Shown here piece after piece: positions 9,897-52,191 of a stretch of DNA of 52,191 bases. Source of the DNA: an uncultured Prevotellaceae bacterium. GTDB lineage: Bacteria > Bacteroidota > Bacteroidia > Bacteroidales > Bacteroidaceae. Location of the stretch: contig CALZKW010000001.1 in the NCBI GenBank assembly GCA_945788095.1, forward strand, positions 1 through 52,191, written 5' to 3'. The notes beneath the pieces were generated by a model, which saw only the letters and a program-made list of their open reading frames with translations, did no database searches and had not been told where the DNA came from. Every line of letters starts with the position of its first letter. Positions within the stretch are counted from its first letter, which is position 1. The translations under genes and the position numbers were made by a program.

Positions 9897-9922
9897 TCAC
9901 TCATCATCATCCCCTGATACAG

Positions 9923-9955
9923 GCGCTGCACACTCCGGTGTGCGGCGCTTTTTTT
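9923..9955 (+). terminator. Intrinsic terminator
   Basis: Stem GCGCTGCACAC / GTGTGCGGCGC (one G-U pair) with loop tccg, then TTTTTTT. Confidence 0.85.
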
Positions 9956-10003
9956 GAGACTCTCCCCCCGCCCCCCAGAAGGGAGGGGGCCGAGGGCGAT
10001 TTT

Positions 10004-10096
10004 AGATATGGGTTTCATCGCCACAGGATATGGGTCTCAGCACCATCAGGATATGGGTCTTGTTGCGCTGAGATATGGGTCTTTTTCTGCTGAGAG
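10004..10096. repeat. Four-unit array, period 22-23 bp, core GATATGGGTCT plus variable spacer of about 11 nt
   Basis: ATATGGG occurs at 10006, 10028, 10051 and 10073. Confidence 0.9.
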
Positions 10097-10195
10097 GTGG
10101 GGGGCAAAGTGTTAGTGAATAGTGAATAATACTTAATACCTTTAATACTGGTAATGTAGAGGAGAAAGCACATAGCACGCCCCAACAAGCCATTC

Positions 10196-10590
10196 ACGGC
10201 CATTTTCAGCACGGAAACATACTGTTGTAGGCCTACAACGGCCATTTTCAGCACGGAAAAATGCTGTTGTAGGCCTACGACGACGATTTTCTGCACGAAA
10301 AATGCTGTTGTAGGCCTACAACGACGATTTTCTGCACGGAAACATATTGTTGTAGGCCTACAATGACGATTTTCAGTGGAGAAACATATCGTCGTAGGCC
10401 TACAACGACGATTTTCAGTGGAGAAACATATCGTCGTAGGCCTACAACGACGATTTTCGGTGGAGAAACATATCGTCGTAGGCCTACAACGACGATTTTC
10501 GGTGGAGAAACATATCGTCGTAGGCCTACAACGACGATTTTCGGTGGAGAAACATATCGTCGTAGGCCTACAACGGACATTTTCGGTATT
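10196..10590. repeat. 42-bp tandem array, about 9.5 units, each unit carrying an AGGCCT-centred palindrome
   Basis: AGGCCT occurs at 10229, 10271, 10312, 10354, 10396, 10438, 10480, 10522 and 10564. Unit sequence is GATTTTCGGTGGAGAAACATATCGTCGTAGGCCTACAACGAC. Units 1, 3 and 4 carry the perfect 16-bp palindrome GTTGTAGGCCTACAAC; unit 2 has one mismatch. Confidence 0.95.
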
Positions 10591-10743
10591 GCGTTAAGGA
10601 ACATAGCATGTCTCAGCGGGGCATATATGGTCTGGCTGCGCAGGTTGTATAGTCCTTATAACTTCCTTTTAACTTCTTTTCAAAAAAAAGCCACGCACCG
10701 AGGGGAGAGTGCGTGGCTATTCGTATGTGGGAGGGGGAAGTAC

Positions 10744-13242
10744 TTAGAGTTTCTTGATGACGTCGAGTAGTTGCTGGCCGAGGCCGATGGTGTAGCCCTG
10801 GCGGCACCAGAGGACGCGGTTGAAGGTGTCGGCTATCAGGAAGACGGGCATGGTGGGGGCCGTGAGATACATGTTGGTCCATATCTCCTGGCGTATCTTG
10901 CCGTCGACGTCGGTACCGAAAACGAGGTTGCGGGGGAGATTGCGGAACTCATCGCGGTTGGTGAAGCGGGCCATCTCAGCCTCGCTCTCGAAGAGGAGCA
11001 CCAGCGAACGACCCCACTGCTCGAGTTGGGCGGCCACAGCGGCTATATCGCGCAGAGCGTGGTTGGTGGGCTCCTGACCGGGAGCGATAAGGCCCACCAC
11101 GTAGTAGCCGCGGCCTGTGATGGAGAGCAACGAACGGATGTCGCCCTGCTCGGTGCGGTAGAGATTCTCGCTGTTGAAACTACCTATCACCGTCACCTCC
11201 TCCTGCGAGGTGCGCATGGTGAGGTCAGCCGTGGTGGTCTCACCCTCGCGGATGGGCAGGAAGTCCATGTGGGCCAAGACGCCGCCATTGGCCAGACGTG
11301 TGCCGCTGACGAGCATGTACTGACCGGTGTCGAGTGTCTGTCCGGAGTCGAAGAGATTGCGCCAGGTGGCACTGCCGTCCTCGGGATAGGTGAGCGACAC
11401 GGGGGTGCCGTCCTGCATCTGGGCCAGGGTGAACTGGTAGTAGTAGCCCGGCGAATGGGCCGTGGTGGTGGGGGTGGCAGAGCGCAGGATGCCCTTGGGA
11501 CTGCCTGCCTGGTGCTCGCTGCCGCCGAAGTGTATGTCCGTCCACTGACCCTGGTCGTAGACCTGCACCTTGCCCGTCACCTCGTCGATGCGGCTGGCGA
11601 TGCCCATGGTGCGGGCCACAGAGACAAAGAAGATGTTGCGCGAGTGGCTATCGGTGCGGCGCACCTGCCACACGCTGCGCGGACTCATGCAGAGGGCCTG
11701 CGGATTGCGGCTCTCGTCGATGGTCACATGCTCGGCCACCCATGCCACCCACTGGCGGTAGTCGCTGCGGCAGGAGGCAATGAAATCGGGGGAGAGCTCG
11801 GTGAGGAAGTACTGCTTGTAGGGCGTGAGCATCTCGTTGCTGACGCGGGGATTGAGCACATAGCGGGCCCAGAGGCTCCGCGGATTGGCCTCGCCCGAGA
11901 GATTGGCCGAGACAGGACGACTGGAGAAGAGATAATGATCGGTCAGTACGTCGAGCGTGACATCGCGGAGGTCCTTCTCGGAGATGACATGCAGCAGCGT
12001 CATGGCCATCTGTTCGTCGTTGACACCGGTGAGGAACTGCTTGATGACATTGTAGTTGCCCCAGCTCTGCTCCACGGCCCAGTTGTCGCGGCGGAAGGTG
12101 GCCTCGTAGGCCGTGCGGATAGAGTCCTCGTACACCAGACGGCGCTGGTTCGCCTCGCGCTGGGCATCGGTGACGGGGGGCATATTGTTGCGCTCGGGGG
12201 GAGGCATCAGGTCGAAGTCCACCTGTCCGCAGTAGGAGACGTCCTTGTCGAGACATACCTCGATGGTGTCCTGGCGGCCCATGCTGCACTTGGCAAACCC
12301 AAACTGCGCCTCTGCTCCCCTACCCCGGCTGGCCCACACCATGATGTCGCCTAAGCCGGAAGAGAAATGCGTCAGGCCGTCCTTGTCCGACTGGCGGGAG
12401 GCGAGGGTGAAGTACTCGGCATAGTTGTAGAGGCGGAAGGAGACGGTGGCGGGCACGGGGCGTCCCTCCCTGTCCACGGTGCGCACCGTGACGGATGCCG
12501 TGGGGGCATAGTTGGCGGTGACGTCTATCTCGGTGAAGCAGGGTGTCTGGCGCATCACGGTCTCGGGACCGTCGTAGCGGCCAAACACCTTGGTGTGCAT
12601 CAGCATGGCTCGCGATGCGGGGGCATTAAACCATCCGAGATTCAACACCGGTTCGGGTTCGCAGGCTCCGAGGAAGCACCATCGGCCATCGACCCAGGCC
12701 TCCACCCAGGCGTGATTGTCGTCGGTGTGTGCCCAGCGGGGGGTATAGACCTGGCGGGCGGGGATGCCCACCGAGCGCAGCGCAGCCACACAGAAGGTGC
12801 TCTCCTCGCCACAGCGTCCCTTGGCATTGCGCATGGTGGCCAGCGGGGCCGAGGTACGGGCATCGCTGGGGGTGTAGGTAACGTGCTCATGACACCAGTG
12901 GTTGACCTCGAGCACGGCTTCGGCCATGCTGAGATGGCGTACACGGCCGCGCAAGGCCTCATAGAAGACGATGCGGGCCTCATCGAGATTCTCATTGTTG
13001 ACTCGAACGGGCAATACGAAGTGGCACCACTCGCGCTCGGGCACCGTCTTGCCCCAGGGCATCTCCTGGCGGGCCTTCATGCTGCAGGCCACATTGCGCT
13101 CCCAGAAGTCGCGGCTGTAGTCGGCACTGTCGGGCAAGGGCATATACTGATAGAGGAAGTCGACGGCCTCGGCCTCACTCGTGGTCTGCGCCTGGGCCGG
13201 CAGAGCGGCGCCGAGGGCAAGAACAAGAAGTAGTCTTTTCAT
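10744..13242 (-). CDS. Secreted transglutaminase-like cysteine protease-fold protein with C-terminal thioredoxin-like domain
   Basis: 832 aa with signal peptide MKRLLLVLALGAALPAQAQ. Transglutaminase core (GRCGEESTFCVAALRSVGIPARQVYTPRWAHTDDNHAWVEAW). The C-terminal section resembles AhpC/TSA-like folds. Confidence 0.85.
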   Translation of the reverse strand: MKRLLLVLALGAALPAQAQTTSEAEAVDFLYQYMPLPDSADYSRDFWERNVACSMKARQEMPWGKTVPEREWCHFVLPVRVNNENLDEARIVFYEALRGRVRHLSMAEAVLEVNHWCHEHVTYTPSDARTSAPLATMRNAKGRCGEESTFCVAALRSVGIPARQVYTPRWAHTDDNHAWVEAWVDGRWCFLGACEPEPVLNLGWFNAPASRAMLMHTKVFGRYDGPETVMRQTPCFTEIDVTANYAPTASVTVRTVDREGRPVPATVSFRLYNYAEYFTLASRQSDKDGLTHFSSGLGDIMVWASRGRGAEAQFGFAKCSMGRQDTIEVCLDKDVSYCGQVDFDLMPPPERNNMPPVTDAQREANQRRLVYEDSIRTAYEATFRRDNWAVEQSWGNYNVIKQFLTGVNDEQMAMTLLHVISEKDLRDVTLDVLTDHYLFSSRPVSANLSGEANPRSLWARYVLNPRVSNEMLTPYKQYFLTELSPDFIASCRSDYRQWVAWVAEHVTIDESRNPQALCMSPRSVWQVRRTDSHSRNIFFVSVARTMGIASRIDEVTGKVQVYDQGQWTDIHFGGSEHQAGSPKGILRSATPTTTAHSPGYYYQFTLAQMQDGTPVSLTYPEDGSATWRNLFDSGQTLDTGQYMLVSGTRLANGGVLAHMDFLPIREGETTTADLTMRTSQEEVTVIGSFNSENLYRTEQGDIRSLLSITGRGYYVVGLIAPGQEPTNHALRDIAAVAAQLEQWGRSLVLLFESEAEMARFTNRDEFRNLPRNLVFGTDVDGKIRQEIWTNMYLTAPTMPVFLIADTFNRVLWCRQGYTIGLGQQLLDVIKKL

Positions 13243-25088: not shown

Positions 25089-27254
25089 CTATGGGCGGTG
25101 CTTCTTGTCGGTGCCCCACTTGCTGGGCTTGCTGGTCATATAGAATTCCAGTTTGCCGCCTTGGATGATGTCCTTGTAGTCGATGTAGCTGTAGGGATAG
25201 TTCTTGCCGTTGAGCTTGACGTGAGAGACGTAGATGTTCTGCTCGCTGTTGTTGTGCGACACGATGGTGAACGTCTTGCCGTCGCCCACGTTGAGGTCGG
25301 CGCGCTCCACCACGGGAGAGCCTAAGATGTAGCGGCCGCCGCAGGGAGCCACCTGATAGAGACCCATCGACGAGAGGATGTACCAGGCCGACATCTGACC
25401 TACGTCCTCGTTGCCGCAGAGACCCGCAGGCTGGTCGGTGTAGAGTTCGCGCATCACCTGGCGCACCTTCTCGGCGGTCTTCCAGGGCTGGCCCACATAG
25501 TTGTAGAGATAGAGCACGTGGTGGCTGGGCTCATTGCCGTGGGCATACTGTCCGATCAGACCCGAGATGTCGGGATTGGCATCAGCGTTGAGGGTGCTCT
25601 CGGCCAGGAAGAGGGAGTCGAGACGCGCGATGAAGGCCTCCTCGGAGGGGAAGCAACCTACGAGTCCGTGGACGTCGTGGGGCACGAGCCAGGTGTATTG
25701 CCAGGGGTTGCCTTCGGTGTAGTCGGACGTCTGATGACAAGGATTGAATCCCTCGCGAGGGCGGAACTGGCCATCGCTGTCGAGGGCACGCATGCACTGC
25801 AGCTGGGGATCGAAGAGGCGCTTGTAGCCCATGCTGCGGTTGTGGAAGTAGGCGCTGTCCTCCACCATGCCGAGCATGCCGGCCACCTCGGCAGCGCTCC
25901 AGTCTGCGATGTAATACTCGAGGGTCTTGGCCACAGGCTCCCAGTCGCCATGATTGTAGGGGATATAACCCAGTTGTTTCATCCAGCCCATCGAGCGGTT
26001 GTCCTTCATCAGACTCGCCTTCATGGCCTCGAAGGCTTCCTTACGGTCGAAGCCTTCCACGCCCTTCAGGCACATATCGGCCAGCACGGGCACAGCGGGA
26101 GAGCCCACCATGCAATAGGTCTCGTTGCTGTGGAGGTGCCACACGGGCAGTTCGCCCTGCTCACGATAGATGTGGAGCATCGTTTGGGCATAGTCGGTCA
26201 GTTTGTCGCGCATCACGAGGGTCTGCAGGGGATGCAGGGCGCGGTAGGTATCCCAGAGCGACCAGGTGGTGTAGTTCTGAAACGTTACTGCACGGCGCAC
26301 ACGTCCGTCCGACCCCATATAGTCGCCGTTGACATCGTTCCACACCTGGGGCGCCACGAGCATGTGATACATCGAGGTGTAAAAGATGCGGCGGTCGCGC
26401 TCGTTGGCAAAGGTGGCCTGGATGCGCCCCAACTCCTTGTTCCACTTCTCGTCGGCAGCGCGATAGACGGCAGCAAAGTCCCATGTGGGCATCTCAGCCA
26501 GGAGGTTCTGCATGGCATTGGTCTCGCTCACGGGCGACACAGCCACCTTGACCATCACGGGGTCGTAGGGCCCCACCTCGAAGGTGGCCTGTCCGTAGGG
26601 TGCGTCGAGCGAAGCGCTGAGCCAGTGGTGAATGGGCTGCGAGAACTGTGCCACGAAATACACCTCCTGATGGCCTGCCCACCCGCGGCTGATGCGATAG
26701 CCGGCTATGGTGTGGTCGTCGAGCTGATACATACGGGCCTGCTTGAGGCGATCGCCCACACCATTGTCGAGGTCGATGATGATGCGCGCATTGTTGCTGC
26801 CGCGCTGAAAGGTGTATTTATGGAGGGCAACGCGCTCGGTGGCGGTCATCTCGCACACGATATTGCTCCCGCCGAGCACCACCTTGTAGTAGCCCGGATG
26901 TGCCACCTCAGTCTCCTTGCGCATGGGAGCAGCCAGACCCTGTCGCGAGAGTTCCACCTCACCCATGGCTGGCATAAGGGCGATATCACCCAGGTCGCTA
27001 CAACCGGTACCGCTGAGGTGGGTCTGTGCAAATCCCACTATCGAGTCGCCCGACTGATGATAGCCCGAGCACCAGTCCCAACCGGTCTCGATCTGCGTCG
27101 GACCGACATTGACCATACCCTGGGGCACGTTGGCACCCACAAAGACATGTCCGTGGTCGCCAGTGCCAATCATAGGATCCACATACTCTGTGAGGCGCTG
27201 ACCAAACGAAGCAGCCGCCAACAACAGGGAAGAAAGAATAGCAATTGTTCTCAT
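25089..27254 (-). CDS. GH92 alpha-mannosidase
   Basis: Start taken at MRTIAILSSLLLAAASFGQ (cat at 27252-27254). YVDPMIGTGDHGHVFVGANVPQGMVNVGPT is a GH92 hallmark. Confidence 0.9.
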   Translation of the reverse strand: MRTIAILSSLLLAAASFGQRLTEYVDPMIGTGDHGHVFVGANVPQGMVNVGPTQIETGWDWCSGYHQSGDSIVGFAQTHLSGTGCSDLGDIALMPAMGEVELSRQGLAAPMRKETEVAHPGYYKVVLGGSNIVCEMTATERVALHKYTFQRGSNNARIIIDLDNGVGDRLKQARMYQLDDHTIAGYRISRGWAGHQEVYFVAQFSQPIHHWLSASLDAPYGQATFEVGPYDPVMVKVAVSPVSETNAMQNLLAEMPTWDFAAVYRAADEKWNKELGRIQATFANERDRRIFYTSMYHMLVAPQVWNDVNGDYMGSDGRVRRAVTFQNYTTWSLWDTYRALHPLQTLVMRDKLTDYAQTMLHIYREQGELPVWHLHSNETYCMVGSPAVPVLADMCLKGVEGFDRKEAFEAMKASLMKDNRSMGWMKQLGYIPYNHGDWEPVAKTLEYYIADWSAAEVAGMLGMVEDSAYFHNRSMGYKRLFDPQLQCMRALDSDGQFRPREGFNPCHQTSDYTEGNPWQYTWLVPHDVHGLVGCFPSEEAFIARLDSLFLAESTLNADANPDISGLIGQYAHGNEPSHHVLYLYNYVGQPWKTAEKVRQVMRELYTDQPAGLCGNEDVGQMSAWYILSSMGLYQVAPCGGRYILGSPVVERADLNVGDGKTFTIVSHNNSEQNIYVSHVKLNGKNYPYSYIDYKDIIQGGKLEFYMTSKPSKWGTDKKHRP

Positions 27255-27275
27255 ACGCGCGCAATTTATTGTATG

Positions 27276-27283
27276 CAAAGATA
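27276..27283 (-). promoter_or_regulatory. Candidate -7 box (TATCTTTG) for the GH92 gene
   Basis: The reverse complement of caaagata matches TAnnTTTG, 21 nt upstream of the ATG at 27254. Confidence 0.5.
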
Positions 27284-27520
27284 GCACTTTTCGCCGACAT
27301 ACGCAAGCAAAAAGGCATTTTTATACCCCCTTACAACACTCCTCTCCCACCCCGCATTTGCGCGCCAACTGACCAACCACCCGCCGGCCAACTGCGCAGC
27401 ATTCTTTGGAAAGCTACCGCGAAGCTACAAGAGAAGTTACAGAGAATCCAAAGAAAACAGAAATCAAATTACGGATTTCACAAAAACAAAACGCGCCCAA
27501 GAGGCTTCGTATACACTATG

Positions 27521-27577
27521 TTTTCGTCCGTCCGTCCAAAACGCTATATATAGGCGTTTTGGACGGACGGACGAAAA
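27521..27577. repeat. Near-perfect 57-bp palindrome H1 containing (GTCC)3
   Basis: TTTTCGTCCGTCCGTCCAAAACGC - tatatatag - GCGTTTTGGACGGACGGACGAAAA. Confidence 0.9.
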
Positions 27578-27650
27578 GGGCATACGAAAAATCGCGTCGC
27601 ACACCTTGAACTTCATAAAAGAGATGGGTAACAGCACAAAAAAAAATATG

Positions 27651-27779
27651 ACTGTCCGGGGAAATCAAGACCCTGTAAGAGTCGCTATAGAGTAGCGTAG
27701 GGCGTCAACCCTACGTATGGCACTACCCCCTATCCTTTGGCCCTGTAAGGGCCTCCTAACTAATACGTCATGAAAATAT
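27651..27779 (+). repeat. Structured dispersed element R of about 130 nt, copy 1 (candidate ncRNA or MITE)
   Basis: Closely similar to 33382-33512, with only scattered substitutions and small indels. Hairpins: GACCC-tgtaa-GAGTC (27669-27683), CGTAGGG-cgtcaa-CCCTACG (27696-27715), GGCCC-tgtaa-GGGCC (27739-27753). Confidence 0.8.
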
Positions 27780-27807
27780 TTAGGGAACGATATACAATTA
27801 GGCACAT

Positions 27808-27880
27808 ATTGTCGCCCGGAAGGCGATACAGCGAAGCGGTCTATAACCCCAGGTGCCGCACGAAGTGGCACCTGGGGTAC
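27808..27880 (+). other. Cluster of strong GC-rich hairpins (candidate structured RNA)
   Basis: TCGCC-cggaa-GGCGA at 27812-27826. CCCCAGGTGCC-g-CAC-gaa-GTG-GCACCTGGGG at 27847-27877, about 14 bp. Confidence 0.5.
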
Positions 27881-27978
27881 AGGTATCCATACCACAAGCG
27901 CCCGCCAGGCGACCATGCCAAATAGCATATCATTGCCAAACATACCCCCCCCGATTTATCTAATGCTCCCCCAAAACG

Positions 27979-28028
27979 CGTCCATCCATCCAAAACGCTC
28001 AATGCAGGCGTTTTGGATGGATGGATGG
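27979..28028. repeat. Palindrome H2, related to H1, with (ATCC)n arms
   Basis: CGTCCATCCATCCAAAACGC - tcaatgcag - GCGTTTTGGATGGATGGATGG. It shares the CCAAAACGC-N9-GCGTTTTGG core with H1. Confidence 0.9.
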
Positions 28029-28076
28029 CTAAAAACTAACAAAAATGTATCACACAAGCAGCGCCGACACTTAAAA

Positions 28077-29549
28077 CTAACACTTTTGTGTCTTGTTTCT
28101 GTTAATTTTGAAACCAAAAGCAGCCTGCAGCACGGTCATGATGGGACTGAGGTAACAAAAGAAACAGAAGGGGGCATACATCAGCGTGCTCACACCGAGC
28201 ACCGAACTCTGCGTCATGCCACAGGTGTTCCAGGGCACAAGGACGGAGGTGACCGTGGCACTGTCCTCGCAGGTGCGACTCAGCAGACGGGGCTCGTAGC
28301 CATGGCGCTCATAGGAGTCCTTGTACATGCTGGCCGTGAGAATGATGCTGAGATACTGGTCGCTGGTGGTGATATTGAGGAAGATACCCGTCAGAGCCGT
28401 GCTGCCCACAAGTGTCACACAGTTGTAGGCCAGGCGCAGGATGGCAGTCATGATGCTCTCGAGCATGCGCGTGGCCGTCATCGCACCGCCGAAGACCATG
28501 GCGCAGATGATGAGCCAGATGGTGCTGAGCATGCCGCCCATGCCTCGCGTGGCTACAAGGGCATTGAGCTCGTCCACACCCGTGTCGACACTCGTGCTGT
28601 CGTAGAGCGCCATCATGACGCCTCTGAACAAGCCCTCCAGACCGCCACAACCGGCTATCTGATAGAGTTGGCCACGCTGCACCAACATCGCTGCGACACA
28701 GGCCAGAATGACGGCCATGAAGAGGATGAGCATCGAGGGCAACTTGCGCATGATCATGACACCCGTAAGCACAGGCACCACAAAGAGCCAGGGGGTGATG
28801 ACGAAGGTGGAGGCCAGCACCTGGCGCACATGGTCGGCACCACCTGTGCCAGCCTCGTCGTGCATCAGTCCCACAACGAGGAAGATGGCAGTCGTAATAA
28901 TAAAGGTAGGCACGGTGGTGTACATCATGTAGCGGATGTGCTCGAAGAGAGGGGTGCCGACCGTGCTGCTGGCCATCACCGTGGTGTCGCTCAGGGGCGA
29001 TATCTTGTCGCCGAAGTATGCACCGCTGATGATGGCGCCTGCCACAAGACCCTGACTGAAGCCCAAGGCGTCGCCGATGCCCATCAGAGCCACTCCGATG
29101 GTGGCAATGGTGGTCCACGAACTGCCCGTCATCACGCTCACGATGGCGCAGATGAGACAGGTAGAGATGAGAAACCACTGGGGATGGAGTATCTGCAGAC
29201 CGTAGTAGATCATCGTAGGCACCACGCCGCTGACCATCCACACGCCACCGATGGCACCGATGAGCAGCAGGATGATGATGCTCTGCGACACGTCGGTAAT
29301 CTTCTCCGTCACGGCCTTCTCGAAGTCGTCGAAGGTGACGTAGCCCGTGAGCATACCAATGCCCACACAGAAGGCAGAGGCCAGGATCAAGGCCACCTGA
29401 GAGGCACCGCTCAGCGAGTCGTCGCCAAAGACGGACACCACAAACGCAATGAGTGCCACCAGCAAAGCCAGTGGCACACATGATAACCAGAGAGGAGGCA
29501 ATCCCTCCTTGCGTATCTTATTCGTCATATAACTTTCGCTATTGCTCAA
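28077..29549 (-). CDS. nhaC: Na+/H+ antiporter NhaC family
   Basis: 490 aa, polytopic. The overall sequence is NhaC-like (ILASAFCVGIGMLTG...GAIISGAYFGDKISPLSDTT). The start could instead be the internal MTNKIRKEG. Confidence 0.88.
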   Translation of the reverse strand: MSNSESYMTNKIRKEGLPPLWLSCVPLALLVALIAFVVSVFGDDSLSGASQVALILASAFCVGIGMLTGYVTFDDFEKAVTEKITDVSQSIIILLLIGAIGGVWMVSGVVPTMIYYGLQILHPQWFLISTCLICAIVSVMTGSSWTTIATIGVALMGIGDALGFSQGLVAGAIISGAYFGDKISPLSDTTVMASSTVGTPLFEHIRYMMYTTVPTFIITTAIFLVVGLMHDEAGTGGADHVRQVLASTFVITPWLFVVPVLTGVMIMRKLPSMLILFMAVILACVAAMLVQRGQLYQIAGCGGLEGLFRGVMMALYDSTSVDTGVDELNALVATRGMGGMLSTIWLIICAMVFGGAMTATRMLESIMTAILRLAYNCVTLVGSTALTGIFLNITTSDQYLSIILTASMYKDSYERHGYEPRLLSRTCEDSATVTSVLVPWNTCGMTQSSVLGVSTLMYAPFCFFCYLSPIMTVLQAAFGFKINRNKTQKC

Positions 29550-33213: not shown

Positions 33214-33381
33214 TGGGGGCGGCGAAGCAAAGTTCACATAGCACGCCCCGCGCTCGGCATCCCGAAGGCAAAATTGGGCTATGAACTGCTGCCCCTTCGG
33301 GGCGTATTAGAGTCTATTTTTCTTTATTGATGATTTTTCTACCCCCCTACCTTTTTAGTTATCCCCCCACCTTATATTATT

Positions 33382-33512
33382 ACTGTCCGGGGAAATCAAG
33401 ACCCAGTAAGGGTCGCTATAGATTAGCGTAGGGCGTCAACCCTACGTATGGCATTGCCCCCCCTATCCTTTGGCCCTGTAAGGGCCTCCTGACTAATACG
33501 TTATGAAAATAT
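33382..33512 (+). repeat. Structured dispersed element R, copy 2
   Basis: Same orientation as copy 1. Hairpin 1 is perfect here (GACCC-agtaa-GGGTC). Confidence 0.8.
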
Positions 33513-50718: not shown

Positions 50719-50841
50719 TAAGGGCTATAATAAGGTAATAAGAGGGAGCTAAAGGGCTATAAAAGGACGTCACCTCTGTGAACATCAGCAAGACATTCGT
50801 CCCTTTCAAGCCCTTTAACTCCCCTATTATACCCCTAAAGG
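50719..50841. repeat. Imperfect inverted repeat of about 123 bp (arms about 45 bp) upstream of dus
   Basis: Left arm TTAAGGGCTATAATAAGG...GGGAGCTAAAGGGCTATAAAAGGACG. Right arm CGTCCCTTTCAAGCCCTTTAACTCCCCTATTATACCCCTAAAGG. Confidence 0.75.
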
Positions 50842-51991: not shown

Positions 51992-52092
51992 AAGACCCGG
52001 GTCCTACACCCTACAGGACCCGGGTCTTGTCGTAGTAATACCCGGGTCCTGTCGCGTCAAGACCCGGGTCTTTTTGCAAAGATACCCGGGGG
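51992..52092. repeat. Five-unit array, period 22-23 bp, palindromic core (G)ACCCGGGTC
   Basis: ACCCGGG occurs at 51995, 52018, 52040, 52062 and 52084. The unit layout and parts of the spacers resemble the 10004-10096 array. Confidence 0.9.
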
Positions 52093-52191
52093 CTTTTAGC
52101 ATTCTGGGTGAAAAGAGAAAAACGAAAAGTAATTGTAAAGAAACCCTCATGACATAATTTGTAGTCGCCAAAGTTCATGAAAAGGGTTGAC

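Follow-up and report, generated by a model that had tools for sequence, protein, structure and literature searches.

The window analysed here, 52,191 nt of contig CALZKW010000001.1 from an uncultured Bacteroidales bacterium of the pig gut, contains between its nhaC and GH92 genes a gene-free spacer of 822 bp (27255-28076), which lies after the nhaC stop codon (28077) and before the GH92 start (27254). The spacer is occupied by two palindromes (H1 and H2), a long hairpin (L) and a repeat (R). In a judgement that is evenly poised, it is neither a gene nor a switch, and would represent accreted hairpin-repeat modules forming a mosaic comparable to repetitive extragenic palindromes (REPs) and bacterial interspersed mosaic elements (BIMEs), located in the 3' region of nhaC at a lineage-specific junction. 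Both R and L's inner part occur as dispersed repeats in this genome, H1 and H2 are a single palindrome present in two local copies, and the spacer is best explained as including a Bacteroidales variant of the known Acido-Lenti-1 module. The modules carrying this interpretation are the following.

27647-27779, minus strand: R copy 1, a dispersed repeat of 133-135 nt, with hairpins at 27753-27739, 27715-27696 and 27683-27669
27668-27715, minus strand: core of R, of the Acido-Lenti-1 type (hairpins of 8 and 5 bp joined by a 12-nt linker)
33378-33512, minus strand: R copy 2, 92.6% identical to copy 1 over 135 nt, with sharp borders
27780-27950, minus strand: L, a single imperfect hairpin of ~170 nt, with its apex stem at 27846-27878 (12-14 bp)
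27979-28028, both strands: H2 palindrome, arms 27981-27998 and 28008-28025 (18 nt, 100% complementary), 9-nt loop
27521-27577, both strands: H1 palindrome, arms 27521-27544 and 27554-27577 (24 nt, 100% complementary), 9-nt loop TATATATAG

Element R had been noted in the original prediction as lying between the two palindromes. It is present there, and proved to be a dispersed repeat with its second copy elsewhere in the window. Copy 2 is found 28 nt past the stop codon of a rhamnogalacturonan-lyase gene on the same strand, and conservation upstream of it ends at the R border; copy 1 is found ~300 nt past the nhaC stop, and both copies are thus placed downstream of a same-strand gene. In an Rfam scan of the window, the sole family above threshold was Acido-Lenti-1 (RF01687), with 40.9 bits (gathering score 37 bits) on the minus strand at 33399-33446, where R copy 2 has its core. 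The core of copy 1 was matched on the minus strand only, with 31.7 bits (E 3.7e-5). For the Rfam scan of 27600-27960 proposed in the original prediction, the corresponding result is this match to RF01687, which stays under the gathering score. A model extended from the published Acido-Lenti-1 seed by the two R cores gave 49.8 bits for copy 2 and 43 bits for copy 1, scores that are partly circular because both cores are in the training alignment. Applied to 1.43 Mb of related Bacteroidales loci, this model returned one more good match, in the Prevotellaceae metagenome-assembled genome (MAG) L012 (35.2 bits, E 7.7e-6), and the 3' end of R, TTTCCCCGGACAGYAATAAT, is common to R and this MAG. The joint alignment of seed and R cores supports the two-hairpin structure well: 95% of the cells are paired and 12 of the 13 pairs covary.

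Acido-Lenti-1 is characterized by an 8-bp hairpin (4-nt loop), a conserved 12-nt linker and a 5-bp hairpin that ends in CU. The R core shows this two-hairpin layout and the conserved linker (GCUA..UAU..CG ... CU), and copy 2 scores above the gathering score. Three differences from the family were observed. The host belongs to the Bacteroidales and not to the Acidobacteria or Lentisphaerae, copy 1 in the spacer stays under the gathering score (31.7 against 37 bits), and the 48-nt core is here enclosed in a longer repeat of 133 nt, which adds a further 5' hairpin and a conserved 3' end. In its original hosts Acido-Lenti-1 is multi-copy and often tandem. According to the published seed coordinates, it forms tandem arrays in Lentisphaera with spacings of 69-74, 110-115 and 192-200 nt, which is repeat-like behaviour. 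No function was given by Weinberg et al. (2010), only a location near group II introns in Lentisphaerae, and a 2026 preprint places Acido-Lenti-1 downstream of protease genes in Tannerella forsythia.

Differences between samples within the spacer are confined to R (positions 27746, 27723, 27703, 27696 and 27692), and some of these polymorphisms shift toward the copy-2 state, a pattern that fits exchange between copies or a repeat-confused assembly. When hairpin 1 with its spacer was compared to hairpin 3 with its spacer, to see whether R is 1.5 tandem units, only the hairpins themselves were alike. No terminal inverted repeats could be recognized in R. One further element directly adjoins the first copy:

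27641-27649, minus strand: run of nine T residues (T9) directly after R copy 1, outside the repeat and missing after copy 2

Two minor observations concern sequences resembling R. At 33261-33304 on the plus strand, 94 nt from R copy 2 and on the opposite strand to it, a weak Acido-Lenti-1-like match (24 bits, E ~0.004) overlaps a GCCCCTTCGGGGC hairpin. At the right end of the window (52144-52191, continuing into L211/L212) the sequence departs from strains L204 and L207, and the contigs of two samples stop there. This foreign sequence contains AGGGTTGACGCCC, identical to R hairpin 2, has an ATG ~90 nt in (MADIQFTQVVS...) and may represent an inserted element; it resembles R only marginally, the score being reached by 6-11 of 1000 shuffles.

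For L, the original prediction described a hairpin cluster. Both named stems exist, namely TCGCC-cggaa-GGCGA (27811-27825) and the apex stem, and they are parts of one long imperfect hairpin and not of a cluster; by nhmmer, the L segment matches its own reverse complement. Folding yielded -86.9 kcal/mol (z -5.7) with 61 pairs, 11 of them G.U, on the minus strand, and -67.4 kcal/mol (z -5.2) with 49 pairs, two of them G.U, on the plus strand. A diverged second copy of the inner module of L is located at 16862-16899 of L204, a contig of a 99.2% identical strain, ~690 nt past a cytochrome bd operon. It consists of a CGCC-N5-GGCG hairpin followed by TCTATAACCCCAGGTGCCG, and the contig ends inside the apex palindrome. 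The alignment score of this copy was 43, against a maximum of 42 in 1000 shuffles. As a long foldback of ~170 nt, L is similar to MITE transcripts, MITEs being miniature inverted-repeat transposable elements. It differs from them in that neither L nor R has definable terminal inverted repeats with a target-site duplication, and in that only the inner module of L was seen twice, a full second copy not being found.

H1 and H2 had been described as related long palindromes with a common core, and this was confirmed in full: they share the core CCAAAACGC-N9-GCGTTTTGG, which occurs twice in the window against 0.02 expected occurrences, and they are 83% identical over 47 nt as direct repeats ~454 nt apart. 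Perfect stems of 9 bp or more, with 3-12-nt loops, number 12 in a scan of the whole window; three of these are in the spacer, H1 and H2 being by far the longest. The predicted tetranucleotide repeats are also present: the arms of H1 carry (CGTC)3/(GTCC)3, and H2 carries ATCC/GGAT repeats. Weaker pairing widens H1 to 27506-27588. H2 starts 48 nt past the nhaC stop and is the same in the window and in the four public contigs covering it, save for the outermost repeat unit in the 99.3% identical strain L002. Differences between the two palindromes are mainly G-to-A changes, one per tetranucleotide unit, each with the matching change on the opposite arm. Template switching within quasi-palindromes yields both perfect complementarity and arm-matched substitutions; this process would be able to maintain the perfect pairing within H1 and within H2, together with the G-to-A changes matched between their arms, and selection for pairing would be unnecessary. 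The flanks of H1 and H2 showed no significant similarity to each other. A half-site was found next to H2:

27972-27984, plus strand: half-site CAAAACGCGTCCA, abutting H2

At 27487-27499, 22 nt from H1, CAAAACGCGCCCA is identical to this half-site at 12 of 13 positions.

The spacer has the same length, order and orientation, with near-identical sequence, in five assemblies (the window, L001/L208, L209, L002 and L003 with L210). The window sequence itself is also present on ENA contig ERZ940998 k127_68021 (L001) with 99.98% identity, and strain variants of it occur in other pig-gut and Logan assemblies. Contigs break within or beside the modules: L002 at the distal border of R, L003 and L210 (one assembly) inside R hairpin 2, and L004 in the loop of H2. 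Outside the species, the best NhaC match among 185,579 GTDB species genomes was 68% identical and came from MAGs named 'Bacteroidaceae/Prevotellaceae bacterium'; in a collection of 5.8 billion proteins the best match reached 75%, and the nhaC products of the nearest relatives range from 66 to 75% overall. These relatives keep the PTR2-nhaC gene pair; directly after nhaC they have a different gene, and GH92 is not nearby. No orthologous nhaC-GH92 junction was found in 80 GTDB loci or in the closest Logan and ENA homologues, and related loci totalling 1.37 Mb have no DNA similar to the spacer. The hairpin block is therefore a fixed feature of the species that the nearest relatives found do not have, and sits at a lineage-specific junction. 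The refuting outcome named in the original prediction, absence or poor conservation at the same junction in close relatives, came out in halves: the block is missing from the nearest relatives, where the junction itself is missing, and is conserved within the species.

The claim that the region is free of genes was borne out, with its extent set at 822 bp. No Pfam family matches the longest open reading frames in the spacer (102 and 92 aa), 27515-28035 queried in six frames against the 5.8 billion proteins gave zero matches at E<=10 (a search that would also reveal copies in miscalled genes), and the public contig carries no gene calls in the spacer. A blastn search of 27500-28050 against plasmids and phages was without match. 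By size, the nhaC-GH92 spacer ranks among the top two of the window. Its borders and the nearest expression signal are:

28077-29528, minus strand: nhaC (Na+/H+ antiporter) coding sequence, identified by translation and PF03553; its stop codon bounds the spacer upstream
27276-27283, minus strand: likely GH92 promoter -7 box, TATCTTTG(C), TATCTTTGC, with the TAnnTTTG consensus, 22 nt upstream of the ATG
25089-27254, minus strand: GH92 coding sequence, starting at 27254; it bounds the spacer downstream

In the window, 24 instances of the Bacteroidota -7 motif TAnnTTTG were counted, most of them before genes and in the form TAnnTTTGC. Because one such box precedes the ATG of GH92 so closely, this gene likely has its own promoter outside H1-H2, and the spacer would not be needed as a promoter source. 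Apart from the GH92 box, the spacer has a single box on the minus strand (27944-27937, TATGTTTGG), which is located within L, is atypical in reading TTTGG and not TTTGC, and loses its TA through a 3-nt deletion in L002. Sigma-70-like and terminator-like matches are no commoner in the spacer than in shuffled sequence. Since neither a canonical terminator nor a conserved internal promoter was found in the spacer, nhaC transcription most likely runs into the hairpin block, as judged from these signals. The 541-nt block folds with -243 kcal/mol (z -10.4).

The interpretation as a mosaic of accreted repeats can be compared to the palindromes described by Di Nocera et al. (2013; PMC3733652). The GTAG- and CGTC-tagged palindromes of that study are mostly located downstream of open reading frames, often transcribed and sometimes intragenic. 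GTAG-tagged REPs carry an unpaired GTAG at one foot of a 5-13-bp stem, and CGTC-tagged REPs an unpaired CGTC tag, an 8-9-bp stem, a 4-5-nt loop and a 3-nt tail. The spacer resembles such elements as a mosaic of hairpin repeats downstream of genes, probably transcribed here, with G.T pairing; R copy 1, R copy 2 and H2 follow same-strand stop codons by ~300, 28 and 48 nt, respectively. Hairpin 2 of R copy 1 reads, on the plus strand, GTAG followed by CGTAGGGCGTCAACCCTACG (GTAG-CGTAGGG...CCCTACG), with TTAG in copy 2 and in some strain variants. The arms of H1 and H2 start with CGTC, reiterated in H1. They differ from CGTC-tagged REPs in their perfect stems of 24 and 18 bp, their 9-nt loops and a CGTC that is paired and reiterated, and are not assigned to that class. 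In functional terms, the block would be transcribed as a structured tail of the nhaC mRNA, where stable hairpins would block 3' exonucleases and read-through or be sites of processing, with nhaC thereby insulated from GH92. For the spread of the modules themselves, an enzyme acting in trans, of the IS200 or REP-associated tyrosine transposase (RAYT) kind, may have moved them as single-stranded hairpins.

Several results weigh against this interpretation. REPs and BIMEs number tens to thousands per genome and are associated with a RAYT gene, whereas no RAYT or IS200 (Y1 transposase) gene is present in the window. No copies of H1 or H2 beyond these two were found anywhere searched, including the search for further core palindromes suggested in the original prediction, which left H1 and H2 alone in the window and produced look-alikes from Parcubacteria in metagenomes. 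That metagenome scan for the H core gave 111 matches, the majority of them a single ordinary terminator from the human gut. Of the look-alikes, the best three (L091, L130 and L197), with CATCCAAAACGCTCAAT...GCGTTTTGGATG in common and variable outer arms, are on Parcubacteria contigs. They were rejected as relatives of H1 and H2 and are probably convergent, because ordinary terminators of Parcubacteria share the same design of A-tract, stem and T-tract. The R core, searched as an exact sequence, had 0 matches in GTDB genomes, JGI metagenomes and IMG/VR, collections from which the species is absent; IMG/VR scans for the H core, the L apex, the 5' and 3' parts of R and the foreign right-end sequence gave 0 matches as well. 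Copies within this genome were counted in its readable part, 52 kb plus ~4 kb. Finally, the G.U strand asymmetry is a weak hint at RNA-level structure and does not serve as proof of RNA, since the minus strand is G+T-rich across the entire spacer, its hairpin-free part included, and the z-scores of the block are equal for both strands.

The alternative that survives best is that the spacer encodes one or two free-standing minus-strand non-coding RNAs, with R as an Acido-Lenti-1 small RNA (sRNA), L as a long hairpin RNA, and H2 and H1 as processing or termination stems. RF01687 is typed as an sRNA gene and matches the minus strand only. One-sided changes in R retain pairing on the minus strand only (a U.G in hairpin 3 of copy 1, and a U.G to U-A change in hairpin 2), and L has 11 G.U pairs there against two on the plus strand, although base composition can account for this asymmetry. 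Perfect duplexes of 18-24 bp are of the size cut by RNase III. Set against this are the lack of a conserved promoter, the only candidate box being the atypical one inside L that is deleted in L002, and the position of both R copies in the 3' region of an upstream gene. For copy 2 in particular, 28 nt separate stop codon and repeat, and upstream conservation halts at the R border. Such RNA genes are considered unlikely.

A single non-autonomous element of the palindrome-associated IS200/IS605 type, extending from H1 to H2 and moved by a Y1 transposase encoded elsewhere, appears quite improbable. H1 and H2 would suit its ends, being similar, directly oriented, hairpin-forming repeats (83% over 47 nt, ~454 nt apart) on either side of a non-coding core. 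Relatives lack the block, and mobile DNA that recognises hairpins is plausible here, given the many small polymorphic insertions of this genome. The arms are, however, perfect over 18-24 bp, unlike the short imperfect end hairpins of IS200/IS605, and no transposase is encoded in the window. The content of the segment is a mix of independently repeated modules (R and the L core), and neither a second unit nor an empty site was found in any sequence reached. The composite non-autonomous element put forward originally therefore stands in part: the idea of repeats is the closest of the earlier explanations, as R and the inner module of L are dispersed and contigs break at them, and joint mobility of H1 to H2 is unsupported.

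Whether H2 and/or H1 could be unusual nhaC terminators, with an A4-stem-T4 core as in bidirectional terminators and, in addition, extra outer arms, was also considered and is held to be very improbable. H2 lies 48 nt past the nhaC stop, its core AAAACGC...GCGTTTT has the A-tract/T-tract layout, and Parcubacteria contigs hold near-identical cores among ordinary terminators of this layout. In H1 and H2, however, the T4 and A4 tracts are buried within long stems whose inner GC part is just 3-5 bp, and the U-run expected directly after the GC-rich stem of an intrinsic terminator is missing at H1 (flanked by AAAA/CAUAG) or follows a gap of 4 nt at H2 (UUUU on the nhaC sense strand), unlike in genuine terminators of the window. 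The earlier statement that they are no ordinary terminators is thus upheld, and its companion, that no U-tract exists outside the stem, is correct for H1 and strictly incorrect for H2. A terminator role for H2 is possible in a non-canonical form only.

Invertible promoters are common in gut Bacteroidales, and ~18-nt inverted repeats do bound a ~460-bp segment upstream of a glycoside-hydrolase gene here, the left half of H1 and the right half of H2 (27527-27544 and 28008-28025) being 89% complementary at a distance of 463 nt; inversion of H1-H2 by site-specific recombination between them, switching GH92 or nhaC, is nevertheless hardly credible, as no recombinase, transposase or reverse transcriptase was found in the 52-kb window (up to 25 kb on either side of the spacer), the segment has no conserved internal promoter, the GH92 promoter is outside it, and a single orientation was seen in every assembly reaching it (three of the five span both palindromes). 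The predicted inverted-repeat pair exists, as an automatic by-product of H1 and H2 being palindromes in direct orientation; the repeats are whole palindromes, which also sets them apart from those of invertons, and the predicted invertible segment was not substantiated.

A wider proposal, which we regard as doubtful, would build on the accretion of hairpin repeats. Prevotellaceae-like gut Bacteroidales may possess an undescribed class of perfect palindromes with arms made up of short units in tandem (four nucleotides long in H1 and H2, seven in related MAGs), mobile or regenerated by template switching and even landing in frame in genes. Acido-Lenti-1 would then be the core of a REP-like mobile DNA/RNA module reaching the Bacteroidota and not an sRNA gene, and the spacer a meeting site of both. 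Palindromes with arms of repeated heptanucleotides were observed in related Bacteroidales. At 12189-12310 of MAG L012, a palindrome of ~120 nt with (GTGAAGA)4 arms makes up a net in-frame insertion of 111 nt in a GH32 gene, similar to the Rickettsia palindromic elements, and is absent from the L010 and L008 orthologues. Intergenic palindromes with such arms are located at L016 7985-8059, L022 12340-12404 and 12827-12909, and L069 9359-9421; more were found at L076 5949-6024, L007 11440-11600 and 19043-19090 of the window.

The finding reveals no new regulatory switch or gene. If the reading as accreted hairpin repeats holds, it would recast the Rfam 'sRNA' Acido-Lenti-1 as a repeat module of the REP kind, with its range widened to gut Bacteroidales, and would document uncultured Prevotellaceae-like genomes as accumulating hairpin repeats. 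Such repeats would break metagenome assemblies at predictable spots and may shape mRNA 3' ends between carbohydrate-utilisation genes.

Other repeats were noted in the window. The other large spacer, 9897-10743 between convergent genes, contains a tandem array of ~10 units of 42 nt (10172-10590), with the unit palindrome GTAGGCCTAC / ATCGTCGTAGGCCTACAACGACGAT; judging by its length, the start of another sample's 45-kb contig would fall within the array, at ~10,540, a position not read directly. An insertion of 86 nt (50756-50841), flanked by the direct repeat CTAAAGG, is missing from L204, L206 and L207 of the 99.2% strain, and a related inverted copy (82%) is present at 16623-16672 of L204. 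From the 42-nt array and such small strain-polymorphic insertions it follows that this genome accumulates repeats of this kind. A cluster of three palindromes of the GACCCGGGTC type (51992-52090) lies immediately upstream of a TATCTTTGC promoter box on the minus strand. At its left end (1-50; L202 5411-5530), the window enters a group II intron at the intron's 5' end (Rfam group-II-D1D4-3, 35.9 bits, gathering score 32); this intron is situated just after a terminator-like hairpin downstream of an mscS-like gene, and all four public contigs break at this point.

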